Source: an uncultured Parcubacteria group bacterium (GTDB taxonomy: Bacteria; Patescibacteriota; Minisyncoccia; UBA6257; 2-01-FULL-56-20). Taken from it: a stretch of 52,345 bases of DNA. Below the pieces are notes generated by a model, which was not told the DNA's origin, searched no databases, and worked only from the letters and a program-made list of their open reading frames with translations. Of the stretch, positions 725 through 9,426 are shown in pieces (position 1 is the stretch's first letter; each line of letters starts with the position of its first letter). Made by a program: the position numbers and the translations under genes. The stretch covers positions 1-52,345 of the forward strand of contig CAIWCR010000017.1 of the NCBI GenBank assembly GCA_903911245.1. Direction: 5' to 3'.

Positions 725-757
725 TGCTTCCAATCTTTCTTCCACAAAAACAAAAAA

Positions 758-888
758 TCGCCATAAGGCCATGGGTCAAAATAATTGGATAGACAAACCG
801 CGGAGCGGTGTTTTAGAGGAGAGAGTTTTAAAATCTCGCACTACTCCTCTGTTTGATTCCATCATTCTGACTCACAGCCTTATGGCGA
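758..888. other. 131-nt imperfect rod-like inverted repeat (RNA hairpin or DNA cruciform)
   Basis: Perfect 12-bp arms tcgccataaggc/gccttatggcga, nested near-complementary arms (gtcaaaataat/atcattctgac; ggagcggtg/cactactcc), and AGAGGAGAGAG at 815-825 near the apex. Confidence 0.75.
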
Positions 889-1007
889 CAATTTCCAAAA
901 TATCTTATATCGAAACCGCTTTCATTTCAATAATGAAACTGATCTCAAAAAAGATGGGAAGTTTTTAAAGGACTTCCCGGAACCTTTGCGGCTCCTTTTT
1001 GATGCGC

Positions 1008-1238
1008 TCAAAAAGGATAAAAGATATTTCGGTTCGCTGCCTCGTGCAGCAAAGCTGAAATACCAAGCAATACCGCAATCGAGATGTAGTAATAATACAT
1101 CTCGAGTAGGAAAACAGGATTCACTTTCTGCAATTCGGTTACGGGAAAATTCCCGAACTCGATTACAAAAACAATCCCAGCGACAAAGCCTGCAATGAGC
1201 AGACACGCATTTGCCGCAGCGCGAAAAGCTAGTGCCAT
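1008..1238 (-). CDS. Small 76-aa membrane protein (two hydrophobic segments), unknown function
   Basis: Strong SD (aaggaggtg) upstream of ATG 1238; hydrophobic stretches ACLLIAGFVAGIVFVI and YYYYISIAVLLGISALL. Confidence 0.7.
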   Translation of the reverse strand: MALAFRAAANACLLIAGFVAGIVFVIEFGNFPVTELQKVNPVFLLEMYYYYISIAVLLGISALLHEAANRNIFYPF

Positions 1239-1284
1239 TTTAAGCACCTCCTTTCTCCGTTTTAACGTTACCGGCAACGTTGTT

Positions 1285-1365
1285 CTGTTTCGCCCTTTGC
1301 GCTTCGCTTACCAAGAGGTAGCGAATACTTGGGCTCATCAGGCATAGACACGCACTCTGCGACAG
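1285..1365 (-). ncRNA. Hammerhead ribozyme, type III
   Basis: Minus strand: CUGUC^gcagagugcgugucuaugc-CUGAUGA-gccc...gggc-GAAA-cag. The core is complete; stems III (cug/cag), I and II all form; loop I UGCGU pairs with GCGCA in the stem II internal loop. Predicted cut between 1361 and 1360. Confidence 0.9.
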
Positions 1366-1535
1366 GGAAGTTTTTCAGAGAAAAACTTCCAAAACTCTTT
1401 TTTAACCCTGTCCGTTCGGAACCACCCGAACGGATTATATTGTCGCGAATGCGACAACGATTTTGAAACTCTGCCGTTTCCCGACTCGCCATTTGCTTAA
1501 GGTGCAAACGGTGACAAAAACCTTTATGAAATTAA

Positions 1536-1558
1536 CGCCGAGCTAACCTAGCTCGGCG
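1536..1558 (-). terminator. GC hairpin overlapping the stop codon of the 256-aa ORF (terminator or processing stem)
   Basis: cgccgagcta-acc-tagctcggcg perfect inverted repeat with only a weak U-tract (ttaattt) on the minus strand. Confidence 0.45.
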
Positions 1559-2313
1559 AATTTTGTCGGCAGTCTCCTGCCGACTACGACCGCCCTTTCA
1601 GAAGGGCGGACGTCGTAGATGAACCGCACCAGCTCTTCGCCGGTGTAGTTATCTGCAATTTTTTTTACGATGCCGCTTCCGGCATCGTATTCTAACCGGC
1701 AAATCTGCCGGTTAGTCGACACTTCTTGACCTCGTCCGCGGTCATAAAATGCCGCAGATGGAAATGCCGTCGGGTCTTCCGAAAAGACCCGAGCCCAGAA
1801 TTCGTCGGGCGTGTTCGCCCACCCGACGCTTTCAATCCAGAGTGCTTTTAACACTCCAGAATCTTGAAGTGGTGGCAACGCTTCAAGATATTTTCCTATA
1901 TCGGCACGGGGGATAATCCATCCCCGCGAGCCCATACAGGAATGATCTCTGACCGCAATTTCGTCGTCAAAGACGACGATATTGCAATCCATCCCGCCGA
2001 CGGCATGTACCGTCGGCACACCCGCGTAACGCAATGCGACACGCAAGCGTGGCCATGAAGCGGCCAGTTGATTGAAAGTCCCTCCTCGAGACTTTCGGAT
2101 AAAGCGGATGTGTTTACATCCGCCAAGAGACTCGTGGAGCCCCTCCACGATTGCAATAACTCCCACGTTGGGAGTTATTTTCGTGAAACCGTTTTCTAAC
2201 GGCTCCACTTTTGCAAGACATTCAATCCCATCAGGGATCATGTGTCTAACAAAAAATTTTTCACTCGGGTCGATCGTAATAATCGACCCTCTTTCGTTAA
2301 TCTTTCTGGCCAT
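1543..2313 (-). CDS. Hypothetical protein (256 aa)
   Basis: Long ORF; start moved to ATG 2313, which follows aaaggagg. No family recognised. Confidence 0.8.
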   Translation of the reverse strand: MARKINERGSIITIDPSEKFFVRHMIPDGIECLAKVEPLENGFTKITPNVGVIAIVEGLHESLGGCKHIRFIRKSRGGTFNQLAASWPRLRVALRYAGVPTVHAVGGMDCNIVVFDDEIAVRDHSCMGSRGWIIPRADIGKYLEALPPLQDSGVLKALWIESVGWANTPDEFWARVFSEDPTAFPSAAFYDRGRGQEVSTNRQICRLEYDAGSGIVKKIADNYTGEELVRFIYDVRPSERAVVVGRRLPTKFAELG

Positions 2314-2392
2314 AATAATATGACCTCCTTTCTTATTGCCCATTTTAGCGGGCACCCCGTCGCCTGTCTGACGATTGCGGGGTTTTGCCGGA

Positions 2393-3187
2393 CTAAGCGA
2401 GTCCGGCTTTTTTCATCGCTTCGGCAAGAGTGCCGAGCGATTCGCCACCTACGCTTGGCTGGTTTACATTGCCGAAATGAACTTCGGCAATATATCCAAC
2501 CACGCGGTTTGGGTCCGCGCCCCCGAAGAATTCGGGATTTCCCGAAACTTCTTCGAGGTGTCGACGCACCCGATCCCTACCGCAAACGAGGACGATATGC
2601 TCGTCCAATACTGCAGCAGGTAACGCCGCAACTCTCGCCATAAACTGGCGAGCACTCTCTTCATTTCCTTGAAAGGCAATGAAGAGAGCTCTTGGGACAT
2701 CGCTCTCCATTTTTGCCAGATCGAAATCCGGCGTATAGGAGATTGTCTGTCCCGGGTAGTCTCGCTCGTCTATAAATTGACGAGCGATGTTCTCCGCCCA
2801 ACCGAGCGGAACGGAGACGAGCGACCACATCTCGCCTCCAGACCCATGACTCGTCGAAGCTTTTGAAAGCTCACGAGTCTCGGGACCAAACACAACCGAA
2901 AAGCTCGGCCAGCGTTTGGCCCCACACCCGTTCCGATACTGTTGTACCAGAACGAGTTCCCGTTGTGCTGTCTCCTCGCAAGGAGCTATCACAACGCTTC
3001 CGTCCACGATGGCAACATGGACCACGTCCAAATTGCCATCAACAGACGACGAACCGAGAAGCCCGACATCATATCGGGTCATCCCCGAGTTCGGAGAAAA
3101 AGGAATCTGACCATCTTTGATCAGAATTCCCTTGTTTACGCTCCGACCACGGAGCGTGAGGGAAACGTGCGCTGTGCTCACAGCCAC
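2393..3187 (-). CDS. Hypothetical protein (264 aa)
   Basis: Long ORF with GTG start after ggagg, overlapping the end of the upstream ORF. No family recognised. Confidence 0.8.
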   Translation of the reverse strand: MAVSTAHVSLTLRGRSVNKGILIKDGQIPFSPNSGMTRYDVGLLGSSSVDGNLDVVHVAIVDGSVVIAPCEETAQRELVLVQQYRNGCGAKRWPSFSVVFGPETRELSKASTSHGSGGEMWSLVSVPLGWAENIARQFIDERDYPGQTISYTPDFDLAKMESDVPRALFIAFQGNEESARQFMARVAALPAAVLDEHIVLVCGRDRVRRHLEEVSGNPEFFGGADPNRVVGYIAEVHFGNVNQPSVGGESLGTLAEAMKKAGLA

Positions 3188-3699
3188 TCGCCTCCCCCAT
3201 TTGAAACTTTTTCAAGCGCCAGGCGAGCCTGGCGTTTTTCTGGCGTTTCCACACGCCAGGATCCATTCATCCACGCATACCACGTGGATGAATATTTTCC
3301 ATCGAGCCGGAATTCCGCTTCCGGCTCGATAATGGCGAGAACTTCCTCGCCATTTCCACAACGACCGGCATCGCCAAAAGCGAAGATGCCAGCCGCGATT
3401 TCCATGACACCAACAGCATCATGGATTTCATACCGGCGGCCTTTTGAATAGGCGCCGGTTGCGTTTATGATCGCGAGACAGCGCGTCTCGCTTTCATAAA
3501 CGCCCCTGACGAGGACGATGTCGCCCTCGTCGCTTTTTTTCGCCCGAACCTCGGGCCCATCCCCAATAATAGGGATGGTCTTTTCAGTCCTGCCCCTTCC
3601 TCTCTCTCCGAGGACAATCTCAGAGAGAGGCTCTCCGTCCTTCTCCAGTTCGACCAGAACTGGAGACTCGCCCGGAAAGCCAATTTTATATAATTTCAT
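3178..3699 (-). CDS. Hypothetical protein (173 aa) with LGERGRGR and AFGDAGRCG motifs
   Basis: ORF with purine-rich RBS (aagggggaaaa-ATG); co-oriented in the operon. Confidence 0.8.
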   Translation of the reverse strand: MKLYKIGFPGESPVLVELEKDGEPLSEIVLGERGRGRTEKTIPIIGDGPEVRAKKSDEGDIVLVRGVYESETRCLAIINATGAYSKGRRYEIHDAVGVMEIAAGIFAFGDAGRCGNGEEVLAIIEPEAEFRLDGKYSSTWYAWMNGSWRVETPEKRQARLALEKVSNGGGEWL

Positions 3700-3767
3700 T
3701 TTTCCCCCTTGCCCGTGCGGTAAAATTTTGCCATTTTTTTTGGCAACCGCATGGGCGAAAAAGATTT

Positions 3768-4718
3768 TTATCGGAGTACAAACTCCGACCGGCGGAGGTG
3801 CCTATCAATGACCTCCTCCACCGTGTTGGGCGTGAGTTTTGAACTCACGCCTTGAGGCGATCCACCGATAGTCGGCGAACCACCCCAACCGGGCTCGAGA
3901 GCAGAGAGCTCTGCGAGCGCGGCTTTTATGTTTACAAACCGCTCCTCGAAGGAGCAGATCGTAAACTTTCGGTGGGGTTCCCCACCGCCTAGCCGGAAAG
4001 CTGGGTTGAGCGCGATTACGACCGGGGCCAACGCATAGCCTACGGTCGTCGCCGCCCGGTGTGTCGATTCGACGACAGCAATTCTGCCGTCGAATCTCGC
4101 CTTAGCTTTGATCGCGCCGCTTTCCAGTGCCGCAATCATGTCGAGTCGTTCGCGCTCGACGTTGGAGCGGTATTGCTCGGGCTCTTCGCCCGTAAGCAAC
4201 CATCGCTCCATTACCGCAACGCGGTCGGCAATAGGGACTTTGAAATCCGCTACTGCCGCCGCAATCGCGGCAAGTGGCCGAGAAGATTCTGCCGAAGCAG
4301 ATTCTTCCGGCCACGGATCTTCTCTGGTTGGTAGAGGCTTAGGCCCCTGCCAACCGCCGCGCGCGAACTTGTCCGCCATTGCGACGGACAAAATCCGTTC
4401 GTGGCAAACAACGATATCCTTACCCCCAGAACGAAGGCAGAGTACCGCCATCGCGCCGACCGCATCGAGGTCGGCGCGAACTGTGACAAGAGTTGCGCCA
4501 ACCGGCGGCAACTCTGCATCCATCGCGGCTTCGATCGCCGCGATGGACACACTTCCCGCAACACCATGTTGCGGGTCGAGGTTTTCGATACACCGACTCG
4601 CGAGAGCCGGTATCGTAACCTCAATTCCGTAAACACCAACCGTGCTGGCGAATACGGCATTGTTGGCTTCGATCGCGGCCGGAATCGGCCGCGGGTCTAA
4701 CAACGCAAAATTAAACAT
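3768..4718 (-). CDS. Hypothetical protein, possibly a permuted DHH-like phosphoesterase (316 aa)
   Basis: SD aaggag; motifs NLDPQHG, RADLDAVGAMAVL and C-terminal GWGGSPTIGGS. The ORF is secure; the product is inference. Confidence 0.6.
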   Translation of the reverse strand: MFNFALLDPRPIPAAIEANNAVFASTVGVYGIEVTIPALASRCIENLDPQHGVAGSVSIAAIEAAMDAELPPVGATLVTVRADLDAVGAMAVLCLRSGGKDIVVCHERILSVAMADKFARGGWQGPKPLPTREDPWPEESASAESSRPLAAIAAAVADFKVPIADRVAVMERWLLTGEEPEQYRSNVERERLDMIAALESGAIKAKARFDGRIAVVESTHRAATTVGYALAPVVIALNPAFRLGGGEPHRKFTICSFEERFVNIKAALAELSALEPGWGGSPTIGGSPQGVSSKLTPNTVEEVIDRHLRRSEFVLR

Positions 4719-5437
4719 AAAATAATCTCCTTACCCCGACGCTCTTTTGTCGTCCGCAGGCATGCCACTTCATACAAGCAGCATTCTGGATACCACAAAT
4801 TGATATTCAAAATGCTACTCATACAAGTAACAAAAAGGAAATTAAATAAAGAACTTCAACACACCGCTCATAGCTCGGACGCTCCCGTGTAATAATCCGC
4901 GAACGTATAATCGCTACGAACAAATATATTGCTTATTAAGTTTTCAAAGAACTACTATCCCTCATCCAATCTATACTCTCTCCTCTAACTGATTGATTAC
5001 AGATTGCCTCTCCTCTATTTCAGGAGATTTTTGCCGTGAAGCGGTGGGTTAGACCGTTTCGCCGGCAACGTATCTCACGAAAAGAAACGTTGTAGCGCCA
5101 TGGATCATTATGATCAACGCGACATTGAAGACAGAGTCGTCGATTCCCTTTTGTCTTCGTTGCCGCTCTCGCTTATTTTCTGCGATGACATGCGCTGCGA
5201 CGAATAATAGATACAATGCCTCATGCGGTAACTCTCTCCTCGAGACCGATACCGACGGGCACCTATCGTTTATAAAAGAGCTGATGAGAATCACTTACCC
5301 GGATTCTCCTAGGTCTCTCTCCTCTAAGAAAGAAGTATGGAGGCGAATTTGGTTCCCCTGCATGCTTCTTTCTTTCCTTTGATCGCTCACTGTTCTTATT
5401 TGAAGTTGTGATGATCTTTTCCTTCTCTCATCCTCGC
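4719..5437 (-). ncRNA. Putative ~720-nt structured 5' leader or ncRNA with GAGGAGAG repeats
   Basis: Lies between a consensus promoter and the first convincing ORF; many hairpins; repeats at 4976-4986, 5008-5017, 5232-5241, 5315-5325. Confidence 0.55.
4941..4952 (-). promoter_or_regulatory. boxA-like antitermination sequence GTTCTTTGAAAA
   Basis: Matches the Firmicute-type rrn boxA and is oriented with the operon; a weaker gttcttta lies near 4847-4854. Confidence 0.55.
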
Positions 5438-5443
5438 AAGAGT

Positions 5444-5472
5444 ATTGTAGCATGGTTAGAAATATTTGTCAA
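5444..5472 (-). promoter_or_regulatory. sigma70 promoter TTGACA-17-TACAAT with extended -10 TG
   Basis: Minus strand ttgaca aatatttctaaccatgc tacaat. Confidence 0.8.
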
Positions 5473-5678
5473 GGACTTGTGGAGATATTTCTTGTAATCC
5501 TAGCTAGACTATATAAAATATGACGTTTTTCGCTTATTTTATTACTATATTTTGTCACAAAACCGTGAAAGCTATATAAACAAAGGGGGCGTTTTCATAC
5601 CTTTGAAATATTTTTGTAATAAAAAATATCACATGGTATTATCTCTATAGGACTTACGAAAAATTATAAAACCCTCTC

Positions 5679-5810
5679 TGTCATCCTGGAAAACGCGAGT
5701 TTTCGAGCGTTTATCCAGGATCCAGGCTTGTATTTTCTTTGATTAAAGAAATGCAGATTAATCCTGGTTCCTGGATACTCCGACCAAGGAGTCGGAGTTC
5801 CAGGATGACA
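5679..5810. repeat. Inverted pair of REP-like palindromes (5679-5724 +, 5765-5810 -)
   Basis: tgtcatcctgga...tccaggatcca and tggttcctgga...tccaggatgaca. Confidence 0.8.
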
Positions 5811-5874
5811 AAGGGGAAAACAAAGAAGTGTAATTTTTCGGAATTTTGCTTAAGTCTTAATCTATAATAAAGAT

Positions 5875-6648
5875 ATGTACGAACAAACACTTACCCAAGC
5901 AGGGCTTTCAGAGGATCAGGCTCGTGTATATGAAACGCTTCTCAAGCACGGAAACTCCCCCGCGAGCAAAATAAGCACCTATACAGGACTCAAACGAGGC
6001 CTTACGTATAAGGTTCTTGATGAACTCGAAAAGGCAGGGCTGATTATAAAGCACGAAAAAGAAGGATCAGTCGCGCAATTCGAACCGGCGCATCCTTTGA
6101 AGCTCAAAGATCTTGCCGACAAAAAGACGCGCGAAGCAGCGGATGCCCACGTTGCGCTTGATGGGATCATAAGTCCGCTTATTTCTGATTTTAATCTGGT
6201 TTCGGGGAGGCCCGGCGTTCTTGTTTATGAAGGTCTTGATGGTATAAAAAAGGTTCTCAACGATACTCTCACGTCAAAAACCGAAATTTGTTCATATGGC
6301 GATATTGAAGCAATTGTAAAAAACTTCGGCGACATAAATAAAGCGTATGGAATAAAAAGAGAGAAGCTCGGCATTAAACGCAGAGGCCTCCTTCTCGACA
6401 CCTTGTTTGCACGAGAATATCTCAAAGATTATCACTCTGCAGTAACTGAAAATCGATTTATTCGCACCGAAGCAGTGCCATTTAAAAGCATTATGAATAT
6501 CTATGACGAAAAAATTGCTTACATCACACTACAGCCAGAAAAAATAATATGCGCGATCATTGCCAATAAAGATATTTACGAAATGCATCAATGCCTTTTT
6601 GAGTATCTTTGGAACATTACCGAACAAATCAAGCCACTTCACGAATAG
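5875..6648 (+). CDS. TrmB-family transcriptional regulator
   Basis: N-terminal GLSEDQARVYETLL...GLKRGLTYKVLDELEKAGLI winged HTH; C-terminal YEGLDGI and IYDEKIA effector-binding region. Confidence 0.88.
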   Translation: MYEQTLTQAGLSEDQARVYETLLKHGNSPASKISTYTGLKRGLTYKVLDELEKAGLIIKHEKEGSVAQFEPAHPLKLKDLADKKTREAADAHVALDGIISPLISDFNLVSGRPGVLVYEGLDGIKKVLNDTLTSKTEICSYGDIEAIVKNFGDINKAYGIKREKLGIKRRGLLLDTLFAREYLKDYHSAVTENRFIRTEAVPFKSIMNIYDEKIAYITLQPEKIICAIIANKDIYEMHQCLFEYLWNITEQIKPLHE

Positions 6649-9340
6649 TTTTCGATGTCTTTTTAGTCGGCTTCATCTTTTCAAAAACACAATAGGTTTG
6701 TCCATCATTTTCAAAATAACGAGTAAGTGCGTAACCCTCCTGAAGTAATGAAAAATCGGGCCGGATGCCAGCAGGACATGTCATTGCAGTTATGTTTTCG
6801 CCTAAGTCTTTTTTTAATTTTATATCCCTCACAAGCTCCTCGATATTTAATCCCTTTGAAGAAAATAGTTTTTCTGCGTCGGGAAGTATTTCTATAGAAA
6901 AACCTGATACTCCTTTAAACTCGGACTCTTTTACTGCGATAAATCCTAATTCATTAATATATTTTTTTGCAATCGGTGCCATTGGACTACAATCAGCAAT
7001 AATCGGAACACCAAACGCTTGCTGTTCAAGAAGTGCTTGCTCAACCATGGTTTCTCCTACTTTACCTTGCCAATAAGCCTGACTCGCATTAAAAGATCCT
7101 GCATAAATAGAGTCGAGCGTGCCGTCGTCGCGATATTTATAATCAAATCGACAAAATGCCGCAACCACACCCTGATGTTTCAAAAGATAAAAACGGGTGT
7201 TTTGATTTTCGAGAGAATCATCAAATATTTTTATAAGAGCATCGCTAAATTCCTGCGAAAAGCTAGTACGGTCACGATAGTTTTCGCGATAAATGTGATG
7301 CATCTCATCAATTGTTGCCTTTTGTTTCTTAAGGTCAGGTGCATCAAGTACGTCAAATTGAGCAAGAGCAAGCTCGCGCAAATCAAGAATACGAAAATCC
7401 TGATTTTGATGTAATGCCTTAAACGTACTCGTAAAAAGCATTGCCTCGGCTTTTACAGTATCGAGTTTTTCGAGAAGAGAAGAAATATCAGCATTCGCAT
7501 CAACCTTATCGGCAAACGATTTCAAAAGCTCATTGCCACGATGAAGAAGATTTTGCGCCGCTTGATTGACGAGCTTTTCATCGGGCTTTTTTTCAGATTG
7601 AAAAGTCTCATTCAAATATTCACGCACGCCATCAACGGCGCTTGCGATTTCTGCATATTTTCCGAACAGCTGCTTAGCAATGTCAGGGTCGAGTTTTTCG
7701 GCAAGTTTGATTATCGCTTGCGAATATGTTTTTTCGTCTTCAGTGCAAGCAAGAAACGCCTTCGCGACATCAATTTTGTAGTCTTTGCAATTACTAAGCG
7801 CATCCTGCATTTCTTTCACTTCATCAACCGTGCGGCCATTGATATATTTGAGAAATTGCACCTGCGAAGAAAGAGGAAGTGCTGATATCTCTATTCCAAA
7901 ATCATCTTCAATTACTTTTCGCATATTCAAGCGCATCAAGTACTCATAATTATATGTTACATCTTCCGATGCCCCGCCAGCCGGAAAAAGACGTTGCAGG
8001 TATTCTTCTCGAGTAAGAGATTTTACCTGATCTTTTTCCCCCTCAATGGACTTAATATATTCTTCGTTATTTTGAAGTATATCGTTCTTCGTAGACGATT
8101 GTAATGCTTCTAGGTCTATGCGACTCGTGTCAAAAAAGAATTTTTGTCCGGTCTCTTTTAGTTTTTGTTCAAAAAAGAAAATATCGAGCCATTGCTTTCC
8201 GGGATTATGGCTCCCCTTGCTAAGCTCAATTGATTCCCTTAGGTCATCATAAATATGATCATTAGATGAGTCATTTTGAGCTATAAACTGTTTTTCATCA
8301 ATAGATCTCTTTGTCGCATTAGATGCCTTTAAAATAAAATCGAGCTTTTCACCTTTATACTTTCCCAAATAGCCTGGAGCAATAGGAATCACCATTTCCT
8401 TTATGAGAGTTCCCTTGTTAATGCCATATTGCAAACGAAAATCATATGATTCTTGCATGTGTCGATAGGCATAAATATGCGCATCATCTACTCCTGGTCC
8501 GATGATAAGACTGCCATGCTTAGCTATGTCTTCAAGGAAGACTCCACGCTCGCCAGCGTTGTTTAAGTGTTTTTTAATAAGATAATTTTCGCATATCGGG
8601 GCAATCTTTTTTACAAATTCTTTTGAAAACCGTATTGCAAATCGATCATAAAGACGGCAAGATTCATCGCGGCCTAGATTCATATACGTAAGACCTTCTA
8701 GTGTTGCAATATCAGCACTTAAAAAATCGATTATTTTATGCATTAGTAAGTTGCCTTCTGGAGTATTAACACGCACAAGAGCTTCTATCTTATTTTTGAG
8801 TTCATCAGAAAACGAATCTTCTGTTTTTTCAAGATTTTTGGCAAGTTTTTTCGTAAGCAGGCTCACCTCTAAATATCGCCTAGATTCACTTAGGGCCGCC
8901 AGAAGAGGGAATGAAAGAGGTTTTTCTTGTAATGAGATAATTTTTTCTACGGCGACAATGCGCTTCTCTTTTTCTTCTTGTGTGTCTCCCTGATAAATAA
9001 ATGATACGAGCTTGTTTTCTTTGCTTTGCTCATTATCCCATAGTGCCTCAATAATCAACTCCATATCCGACTCTAAAATTATCTCGTCTGTTTTCTTGTT
9101 ATTAATAACGAGGTCTGCAATTTCATTTATATCAGCTTCTGAAAGCGTATTTTCAATAGACTCTTCTTTTTCTTGTTGATTCTGGATTGCCTTTTCGCGC
9201 CGAACACCCGAAAGACGCACGTTTCGTAATAGTCCTACCAATTCCTTGCGTTTCTGCTCTTCTTCAGCTGACCGATTTTCCACTAAATCAGGCCGTAGTT
9301 CAGCGTTTGAATCCGAAGGCACATTTTTCTCTTTAAACAT
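6629..9340 (-). CDS. Large hypothetical protein (~903 aa) with C-terminal GNAT-like domain
   Basis: Long ORF; RFYLLKHQGVVAAFCRF...GSFNASQAYWQGKVGETMV resembles GNAT motif A. Start placed at ATG 9340, downstream of a promoter. Confidence 0.7.
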   Translation of the reverse strand: MFKEKNVPSDSNAELRPDLVENRSAEEEQKRKELVGLLRNVRLSGVRREKAIQNQQEKEESIENTLSEADINEIADLVINNKKTDEIILESDMELIIEALWDNEQSKENKLVSFIYQGDTQEEKEKRIVAVEKIISLQEKPLSFPLLAALSESRRYLEVSLLTKKLAKNLEKTEDSFSDELKNKIEALVRVNTPEGNLLMHKIIDFLSADIATLEGLTYMNLGRDESCRLYDRFAIRFSKEFVKKIAPICENYLIKKHLNNAGERGVFLEDIAKHGSLIIGPGVDDAHIYAYRHMQESYDFRLQYGINKGTLIKEMVIPIAPGYLGKYKGEKLDFILKASNATKRSIDEKQFIAQNDSSNDHIYDDLRESIELSKGSHNPGKQWLDIFFFEQKLKETGQKFFFDTSRIDLEALQSSTKNDILQNNEEYIKSIEGEKDQVKSLTREEYLQRLFPAGGASEDVTYNYEYLMRLNMRKVIEDDFGIEISALPLSSQVQFLKYINGRTVDEVKEMQDALSNCKDYKIDVAKAFLACTEDEKTYSQAIIKLAEKLDPDIAKQLFGKYAEIASAVDGVREYLNETFQSEKKPDEKLVNQAAQNLLHRGNELLKSFADKVDANADISSLLEKLDTVKAEAMLFTSTFKALHQNQDFRILDLRELALAQFDVLDAPDLKKQKATIDEMHHIYRENYRDRTSFSQEFSDALIKIFDDSLENQNTRFYLLKHQGVVAAFCRFDYKYRDDGTLDSIYAGSFNASQAYWQGKVGETMVEQALLEQQAFGVPIIADCSPMAPIAKKYINELGFIAVKESEFKGVSGFSIEILPDAEKLFSSKGLNIEELVRDIKLKKDLGENITAMTCPAGIRPDFSLLQEGYALTRYFENDGQTYCVFEKMKPTKKTSKTIREVA

Positions 9341-9364
9341 AATAGAATATCTTGATTTAATCTT

Positions 9365-9426
9365 AGCATACCCTCCCGCCAAAGCAGAGTCAAAAACCTT
9401 GACAAATCCTTACTATATGGTAGTAT
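9365..9426. promoter_or_regulatory. Back-to-back divergent sigma70 promoters
   Basis: Plus: TTGACA(9399)-16-TAGTAT(9421) with TG. Minus: TTGACT(9393)-17-TATGCT(9370). Confidence 0.65.

Follow-up and report, generated by a model that had tools for sequence, protein, structure and literature searches.

What is encoded on the minus strand between positions 758 and 5472 of contig C17 of an uncultured Parcubacteria group bacterium, where protein-coding genes alternate with long stretches of hairpin-rich, apparently non-coding DNA? The contig was analysed over a stretch of 52,345 nt (hereafter the window) and belongs to a Patescibacteria genome of 865 kb that is 98.8% complete and comprises 47 contigs; the unit in question lies close to the contig start. 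A preliminary description, made from the letters of the DNA, had listed a promoter, a hairpin-rich leader with four repeats and a boxA-like site, open reading frames (ORFs; O1 to O4) with Shine-Dalgarno (SD)-like sites, a hammerhead ribozyme in a ~300-nt spacer, a 76-aa ORF (O5) and a 3' rod carrying the complement of the leader repeat, and we find all of these to be present (Table 1). Its estimate that about a third of the unit is non-coding agrees with the ~31% of 758-5472 that follows from the ORF coordinates, its impression that the ORFs are GC-richer than their surroundings is borne out by values of 52-60% against 35-44% in the flanks, and the TrmB gene that it placed divergent from the unit is indeed found at 5875-6648 on the plus strand.

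The RNA elements of this unit are conserved in related loci, covary there and keep the same order. We infer that 758-5472 is transcribed as one unit, antiterminated, cleaved in vivo and brought to pairing between the GA-rich repeats of its leader and a CU-rich motif of its rod, and we are moderately confident in the resulting reading of a single, accessory, boxA-antiterminated transcription unit that is framed by RNA elements, cut by a hammerhead and joined by a contact resembling that of a ribosomal RNA (rRNA) leader and trailer. Related loci, designated by L numbers, were fetched through O1 (44 loci) or O3 (32 loci), and all 76 were scanned in the descriptor and peptide searches; the numbers of leader and rod instances are small, and most of the metagenome contigs are short.

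The leader RNA and its boxA

The unit opens with a sigma-70-type promoter (5472->5444) that ranks first among the 12 promoter-like sites between 400 and 6000 and whose -35 context, (G)ACTTGACAAA, recurs in the leaders of L073 and L037. The ~720 nt that follow fold better than all of 20 shuffled versions (z -7.97) and hold no conserved ORF when stop-to-stop peptides from six frames are compared with the 76 related loci, with the exception of one stretch of L073 that is matched in several frames and on both strands, so that this similarity is one of nucleotides and not of protein. The core of the leader repeat, GAGGAGAG, has 24 copies in the 865-kb genome, counting both strands together, of which four lie on the minus strand inside the leader and form the only such cluster of the genome.

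Neither blastn nor nhmmer found a significant match to leader, spacer or tail in the first 44 loci, and the homology of the leader was found only via L073, which shares with the window the adjoining large protein, TrmB, O2, O3 and O1 at protein identities of 42-56%. In its leader the -35 context and the block CTCGAGGAGAGAGT return, together with more copies of AGAGGAGAG and a block of ~50 nt that is almost identical to the window, and the block order of the window leader is found again in L037, L061 and L020. All five leaders form a hairpin of a 7-bp and a 12-bp helix with compensatory changes and a conserved apical loop, and a model seeded by them (R2) recovers the five seeds together with four non-seeds, three of which (L032, L024 and L021) each lie upstream of an O1 gene, the fourth being in G139. 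Of the cells of the nine hairpins 91.8% pair, a share that falls to 36-49% on sliding the partner; both sides change in 13 of the 19 pairs, and there are more G-U cells than a hairpin acting as DNA should tolerate. In all nine loci the gene strand carries first the promoter, then GA repeats, the hairpin, a further GA repeat and the boxA-like block, and last the genes; a TTGACA-type promoter precedes the leader element in eight, and an O1 gene lies downstream in seven. The hairpin-rich leader is thus a conserved, structured non-coding RNA with covariation, if a rare one: its hairpin was found in 2 of 151 sampled genomes of the phylum, including the genome of the window, and in 7 of 46 O1-bearing loci searched.

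The final conserved block of the window leader reads GTTCTTTGAAAACTTAATAAG, and a boxA-like block is conserved across the leaders. What had been described as boxA-like is a real match: GTTCTTTGAAAAC occurs exactly twice in the genome, once in the leader (C17:4952(-)) and once in the rRNA leader (C23:5168(-)), where it follows a TTGACA-17-TATAAT promoter and a small hairpin and lies ~100 nt upstream of the 5' end of the 16S gene, the position expected of an rRNA boxA. The window copy agrees with the gammaproteobacterial consensus GYTCTTTAANA at 10 of its 11 positions, as quoted in the accessible part of PMC5725501, a source that also has boxA elements outside rRNA on record, and NusB is encoded in the genome (PF01029, 107.7 bits, G000:C7:7598-7978). 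Among the other leader genomes, that of L021 (G403) has TTGAAAACT in common between leader block and rRNA leader and that of L020 (G402) gave no clear match of the two that we could recognise; a 16S match is missing from G401 and G405, and what G404 has of 16S is limited to short 3' fragments. Identity with the rRNA boxA and the presence of NusB strongly back the assignment of a boxA at this locus, and the read-through that it would bring about would be Nus-dependent.

Hammerhead, 3' rod and the case for one unit

The hammerhead lies 173 nt past O4 and ~40 nt ahead of O5 in a spacer (1239-1542) with a fold z of -2.90. Its core is complete (CUGAUGAG ... CGAAAC, that is, CUGAUGA...GAAA), stem III is open and the other two stems are capped, and from the position of its GUC^G triplet at 1361/1360 a 5'-OH is predicted at 1360. 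It shares with Rfam RF00008 (Hammerhead_3) both core motifs, the cleavage triplet and a three-helix layout in which stem III is open, but it differs in an insertion of ~45 nt in stem II and a stem III of only 4 bp, and its score of 27.1 bits (1282-1368, model positions 1-54, E 4.8e-4) stays below the gathering score of 48.5. Stem I has one mismatch. At relaxed thresholds this is the sole such match in the genome; at gathering scores, Rfam reports only two tRNAs in the window. A match of 27.4 bits to IS605-orfB-II (1362-1493, E 0.16, gathering score 88) was treated as chance, as were microRNA and snoRNA matches.

Support for this ribozyme comes from its relatives. Two canonical type III hammerheads flank the O1 gene of L037, the locus with the closest TrmB, and a descriptor scan of the 76 loci yielded 19 further hammerheads, all on the strand of the O1 or O3 gene; in 14 loci tested, every one was missed at Rfam gathering scores, so that standard Rfam annotation overlooks this family. 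A family model built from a nearly gap-free alignment of 16 seeds (R1), of which the window copy was not one, picks out 26 sites in the 644 kb made up of the related loci and the window, ten of them non-seeds, and scores the window copy at 34.6 bits (E 6.3e-7, model positions 1-58), its one match in this genome. Over 32 R1 matches, 96% of cells pair compared to 35-46% with the partner slid, and 163 cells and 13 of 16 pairs change on both sides, figures that lean towards structure because the seeds were chosen for pairing and the alignment was fitted to the model; the stronger argument is provided by the non-seed matches and the variety of pair types. These hammerheads are intergenic: they follow the stop codons of O1 and O3 at a distance of 42-49 nt, and the ORF downstream commonly begins 25-60 nt further on. 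Membership of the window copy in a real, covarying type III family that punctuates the genes of related loci is supported.

Three side observations concern these ribozymes. Upstream of many of them (L037:4490-4530 and similar sites) lies a hairpin with a CU-rich 3' arm that shares sequence with the 5' strand of stem III, an alternative pairing that could delay or gate cleavage. At L120, L109, L118 and L115 (G037, G079, G142 and G075), i.e., in 4 of the 18 further hammerhead genomes, a TrmB-family gene is divergent from the hammerhead strand at a distance of 0.2-3.2 kb, in loci where the leader hairpin could not be detected. L037 has two copies of a ~130-nt element (3530-3670 and 4040-4170) in the interval from its leader to its first hammerhead; each copy runs up to the start codon of a small, Cys-rich ORF and could be a repeated cis-regulatory 5' untranslated region (UTR) or a cassette boundary.

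The unit ends in the 3' rod, which has arms of 33 nt (fold z of 740-1007 -8.19, 200 shuffles) and is followed by a U run (TTTTTTGTTTTT) as in an intrinsic terminator; the U run is also found in L061, and L073 has none. Rods occur in four loci (window, L073, L061 and L037), always after the final cargo gene and downstream of any hammerhead, and their outer stems differ in sequence yet pair, i.e., covary. They have in common an apical stretch, (GAGGAG)U(A)GUG(C)GAGAUU...AAAA(C/U)CUCUCUCCUCU(A/U)A, whose CU motif is an exact complement of the leader repeat over 14 nt in the window (813-826 with 4975-4988), 13 in L061, 11 in L073 and 10 in L037. That the rod carries the complement of the leader repeat is thus borne out, and conserved, in all four loci; these counts come from a motif search and four aligned sequences, for which the MAFFT alignment is imperfect. 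A second terminator-like hairpin with a U run, past O5, escaped the terminator scan because its loop exceeds 8 nt.

Table 1. Positions of the features of the unit and of its divergent neighbour in the window
Feature	Position	Strand	Evidence
Sigma-70-type promoter, TTGACA-17-(TG)-TACAAT	5444..5472	-	11/12 positions match, TG present
Non-coding leader RNA of ~720 nt, conserved family	4719..5437	-	Fold z -7.97; homologous leaders
GA repeat 1, AGAGGAGAGAG	5315..5325	-	
GA repeat 2, CGAGGAGAGAG	5232..5242	-	Block CTCGAGGAGAGAGT identical in L073
Conserved hairpin, 7-bp and 12-bp helices, apical loop near CUAACCC	5017..5084	-	R2 56.3 bits; covariation
GA repeat 3, AGAGGAGAGGC	5006..5016	-	
GA repeat 4, AGAGGAGAGAG	4976..4986	-	With flanks, 14-nt exact complement of 813-826
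boxA, copy of the genome's own rRNA-leader boxA	4933..4952	-	13-mer identity
O1, 316 aa, DHH/DHHA1-like fold (predicted)	3768..4718	-	Model and Foldseek
O2, 173 aa, conserved partner of O3	3178..3699	-	Homologues, adjacency
O3, 264 aa	2393..3187	-	47 homologues; model
O4, 256 aa, rare	1543..2313	-	Homologue count
Type III hammerhead, long stem II insertion; predicted cut between 1361 and 1360	1280..1369	-	Rfam HH3 27.1 bits, R1 34.6 bits
O5, 76 aa, hydrophobic	1008..1238	-	Open ORF, weak matches only
Terminator-like hairpin and U run past O5	947..978	-	Sequence reading and fold
Conserved 3' rod (758-888), CUCUCUCCUCUAA at 813-826 in apical part, U run after	745..888	-	z -8.19; homologous rods
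Divergent TrmB-family regulator	5875..6648	+	Pfam TrmB 1.5e-12

How might these elements work together? Transcription would start at the near-consensus promoter, divergent from the TrmB-family gene, and produce an untranslated leader of ~720 nt with three to four AGAGGAGAGAG repeats, the covarying 19-bp hairpin and the copy of the genome's own rRNA boxA. The boxA would recruit NusB and S10 and thereby enable RNA polymerase to read through the many hairpins of a unit whose cargo is modular and genome-dependent (the DHH/DHHA1-like O1, the O2-O3 pair and other genes). The hammerhead would cut between 1361 and 1360 and separate an upstream RNA with O1 to O4, ending in a 2',3'-cyclic phosphate, from a downstream RNA with a 5'-OH that carries O5 and the 3' rod. 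The conserved, rod-shaped terminator would end the unit, and its apical CUCUCUCCUCUAA, the complement of the leader repeats, could establish a 5'-3' contact analogous to the helix between leader and trailer in pre-rRNA, in cis if it forms before cleavage and in trans if it forms afterwards.

The analogy builds on pre-rRNA, for which the available part of PMC10250234 describes a boxA complex and a leader-trailer helix that act together. As portrayed there and in the accessible text of PMC5725501, rRNA operon leaders resemble the unit in the 13-nt boxA identity, the strong promoter, the long untranslated leader and the bracketing complements. They differ from it in that the body of our unit is protein-coding and its complementarity amounts to 11-14 nt to repeated motifs instead of one long helix; in addition, no RNase III site, boxB or boxC was identified here, and Rho was not found in the genome.

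A bolder version of this reading, which we regard as doubtful, takes leader, hammerheads and rod as an unrecognised RNA frame for exchangeable, GC-rich gene cassettes that would subject mRNA to a maturation in the style of pre-rRNA. The boxA-modified polymerase would hold the GA-repeat leader near until the rod with its CU loop has been made and both can pair, and the hammerhead cuts would free gene-length RNAs that are protected at their ends and possibly ligatable or circular. If true, this would give bacterial hammerheads a defined role.

Several observations weigh against a unit that functions as a whole. The window hammerhead is the weakest of its class, with 34.6 bits where most others reach 50-78, and it may be slow, decayed or inactive. 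In the phylum sample, hammerheads are mostly found in genomes without the leader (18 hammerhead genomes against 1 other leader genome), and L073 has leader and rod without a hammerhead, so that the elements are evidently separable. No RNA-binding domain of Rho was found in the 98.8%-complete genome, and the classical anti-Rho rationale for boxA may thus not apply. The GA and CU motifs are invariant, with no compensatory variants among the leader and rod loci, and so offer no compensatory change to prove their pairing; L032, L024, L021 and L129 have the hairpin and no CU motif at up to one mismatch. Finally, all alignments used for counting pairs were either selected for pairing or fitted to a model.

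Taken at face value, the separability would suit an explanation that we consider unlikely, namely that the elements are unrelated neighbours in an ordinary accessory operon of a variable region. On this view the leader would be either an extended 5' UTR or a TrmB-linked cis-regulatory RNA, and the hammerhead one copy, in decay, of a ribozyme common in the phylum; the complementarity of the GA and CU motifs would have no function of its own, the rod being a terminator and the GA runs SD-like. Besides the hammerhead-free L073 and the low score of the window copy, the differing frequencies of the two elements among the sampled genomes (R1 matches in 19 of 151, the leader hairpin in 2 of 151) agree with this, and GAGGAG, which is SD-like, is over-represented genome-wide (451 observed against 290 expected). 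It is harder to reconcile with the finding that four loci, whose proteins share only 48-73% identity, preserve a 13-mer and its complement unchanged and at corresponding positions, that the rod bearing the CU motif in its apical part covaries and that the block order of the leader is constant in nine loci; the boxA copy likewise argues for a dedicated mode of elongation.

Variable gene cargo

The ORFs of the unit are all open, each with an SD-like site. O1 to O4 have no match in Pfam, PHROGs, PADLOC or NCBIfam, and O5 has only weak matches, among them one in PHROGs (E 0.0041), and none in PADLOC. For O1, 915 homologues were found at E <= 1e-3 among 8000 candidates scored, of which the best 120 are 59-71% identical and all named "hypothetical protein". 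Its predicted structure (pLDDT 87.4 with an alignment of 26 sequences) led Foldseek to DHH/DHHA1 proteins in all top PDB matches, including Rv2837c, the pApA phosphodiesterase TM1595, NrnA, RecJ, PggH and GdpP, with 19 chains at E <= 1e-3 (best 4.5e-5) and probabilities of 0.93-1.0 at low TM-scores (0.25-0.43). Sequence profiles are blind to this relation, as no Pfam family reaches E <= 0.1 and searching PDB sequences with the O1 profile gave only two matches, both insignificant (E 0.26 and 0.64) and outside the DHH family, and we call O1 DHH/DHHA1-like in fold only. The model predicts the two-domain fold of the DHH/DHHA1 phosphoesterases (NrnA, Rv2837c/CnpB, TM1595, GdpP and RecJ), from which O1 differs in the missing Pfam and NCBIfam matches to DHH or DHHA1, the low TM-scores and the order of motifs: its conserved acidic and His residues (NLDPQH, DLD and ADKF) do not follow the canonical DHH order, and a glycine-rich GGSP...GGSPQG block lies in what we take to be the place where DHHA1 carries its GGGH-type motif. 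A predicted nanoRNase-like fold would be compatible with many substrates.

Less can be said about the other products. O2 has 83 representative homologues, and no usable entry for it came from the Atlas; O3 has 47 homologues and a model of pLDDT 83.1 for which Foldseek found no fold match in the PDB at E <= 0.001. The two are not detectably related to each other (hhalign probability 10%). O4 counts five proteins in all, itself included, and is absent from every related locus of the O1- and O3-fetched sets.

The genes are evidently modules that can be combined. O2, O3, O4 and O5 were found by tblastn in none of the 44 O1-fetched loci; O2 is adjacent to or overlaps O3 in 25 of the 32 O3-fetched loci, two of which also have O1; and since O1 and the O2-O3 pair occur apart, we distinguish O1, the O2-O3 pair and others as separate modules. 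The preliminary description had proposed one antiterminated, self-processed transcript, possibly with 5'-3' pairing, in which some products of the four ORFs act on the resulting RNAs. The RNA elements on which this proposal builds are supported as conserved; a fixed set of four ORFs and an action of their products on RNA are not supported, as O1 comes without O2 to O4 in 44 of 44 loci and without a detectable leader hairpin in 39 of 46 searched, and no product gave any indication of acting on these RNAs.

O1 is also GC-richer than its surroundings nearly everywhere, by a mean of 15 points over the rest of the locus and in 31 of 33 loci, with O1 genes of 45-69% GC in hosts of 36-54% and a largest excess of 26 points, an unusual property in a gene that many families of one phylum carry. 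The same holds for O2 in nine of nine loci and for O3 in 11 of 11. O1 is patchily distributed: of 401 genomes sampled from the phylum nine carry it, and it is absent from the listed genomes of the same order or class. In single-protein pattern scans no relatives of O1 were seen in genome or viral contigs, and an alignment scan of viral contigs found none of O3. Some O1 homologues are on contigs labelled Actinomycetota, Flavobacteriaceae or Gammaproteobacteria (L039, a Nesterenkonia flava contig, L030, L033 and L043), which could reflect mis-binning, contamination or transfer. Very deep contigs (to ~970, run X1) match solely the conserved part of O1 at 4447-4595 and are thus ascribed to related O1 genes of other abundant organisms in the same lake samples.

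Patchiness, GC excess and variable cargo would be equally at home in an explanation on the level of DNA, quite improbable in our view, in which the GA repeats and their inverted copy bind the TrmB-family regulator, with looping, or a recombinase or transposase, and mark the ends of a mobile carrier of cassettes. A tyrosine recombinase adjoins the unit, a tRNA follows the rod in L061, and a motif in both orientations would suit a protein that binds double-stranded DNA. Against this, the leader copies are all in one orientation, and the inverted copy is always in an RNA-type rod with G-U pairs, between promoter and U run; the unit contains neither a transposase nor a recombinase in any of the loci, and synteny with TrmB and the 800-917-aa neighbour reaches past the repeats. 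No excision joint removing the unit was seen in four DNA runs, a weak test because these runs are contigs.

Small ORFs with a match to the Csx3 (ring-nuclease) domain (PF09620, E 8.2e-6) recur in related units (L035:9832-10200, L073:4581-4895 and three other loci) and are followed by a hammerhead in L035. Such ORFs, the GC anomaly, the predicted O1 fold of nanoRNases and cyclic-dinucleotide phosphodiesterases and the published hammerhead clusters near integrases, prophage genes, ardA and a marR gene (in the accessible part of PMC3088659) could evoke an integrated phage-like element of which this would be the early or anti-defence operon, with hammerheads processing a long transcript, a role already proposed for them in prophages, and cargo (the DHH-like O1, in other loci a Csx3-like protein) degrading host signalling nucleotides, which is very improbable given that none of the five products has a PADLOC match and only O5 a (weak) PHROGs match, that two scans for O1 and one for O3 found no relative in viral contigs, that the loci examined show no phage structural or replication genes and that O1 is only a putative phosphoesterase.

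Precedents and genomic setting

Clusters of hammerheads around variable genes are already known from 2011, when Perreault et al. (PMC3088659) reported, in the part of their text available to us, multiple hammerheads on either side of individual genes or of short gene blocks whose identity changes, in the neighbourhood of integrases and prophage genes, and proposed a role in processing long transcripts. The unit described here resembles those clusters in the presence, across its related loci, of several gene-strand hammerheads between variable genes of mostly unknown function, in a nearby regulator (MarR-type there) and integrase and in the proposed cutting into gene-length RNAs. It differs from what that part of the report covers in its occurrence in Patescibacteria, in type III ribozymes with a family-specific stem I loop that score below the Rfam gathering threshold and in the ~700-nt structured boxA leader and the 3' rod with its complementary motif, neither of which is described there. 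A full-text search of a limited literature collection returned no relevant report of hammerheads in Patescibacteria or the candidate phyla radiation. The architecture, which the preliminary description did not recognise, is therefore in part a familiar one, and it is the leader, the rod and the Patescibacteria setting that appear undescribed.

A review of 2019 (PMC6765202, as far as its accessible text goes) still calls the role of genomically encoded bacterial hammerheads open, and the unit offers a new setting for asking what they are for: it ties a hammerhead family to a transcript architecture with testable parts, i.e., an rRNA-type boxA, a covarying hairpin, invariant GA repeats and a complementary 3' loop. 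Leader and rod add two candidate RNA families, and O1 adds a widespread, unnamed DHH-like protein family of >900 members that is far GC-richer than its hosts.

The promoter is probably under the control of the TrmB-family protein, judging by position: a TrmB homologue is divergent from the leader in six of the nine leader loci, and one was found by tblastn in 18 of the 44 O1-fetched loci. Near the unit, Pfam also detects a generic fragment of the Phage_integrase family. Convergent with TrmB follows a 917-aa protein with a weak GNAT-like match (6629-9382, minus strand) that is syntenic with TrmB in at least four leader or O1 loci (window, L021, L037 and L073).

Between 740 and 5668, 13-mer matches and blastn revealed no sequence that is repeated elsewhere in the genome. 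The unit is bracketed at 600-740 and 5668-5822 by a genome-wide palindromic repeat of the repetitive extragenic palindrome (REP) or miniature inverted-repeat transposable element (MITE) type, which does not belong to it; a 13-mer of this palindrome has 45 matches in the genome at up to one mismatch, and blastn finds many copies. One contig of run X1 skips 5649-5866, which suggests an insertion polymorphism at this palindrome.

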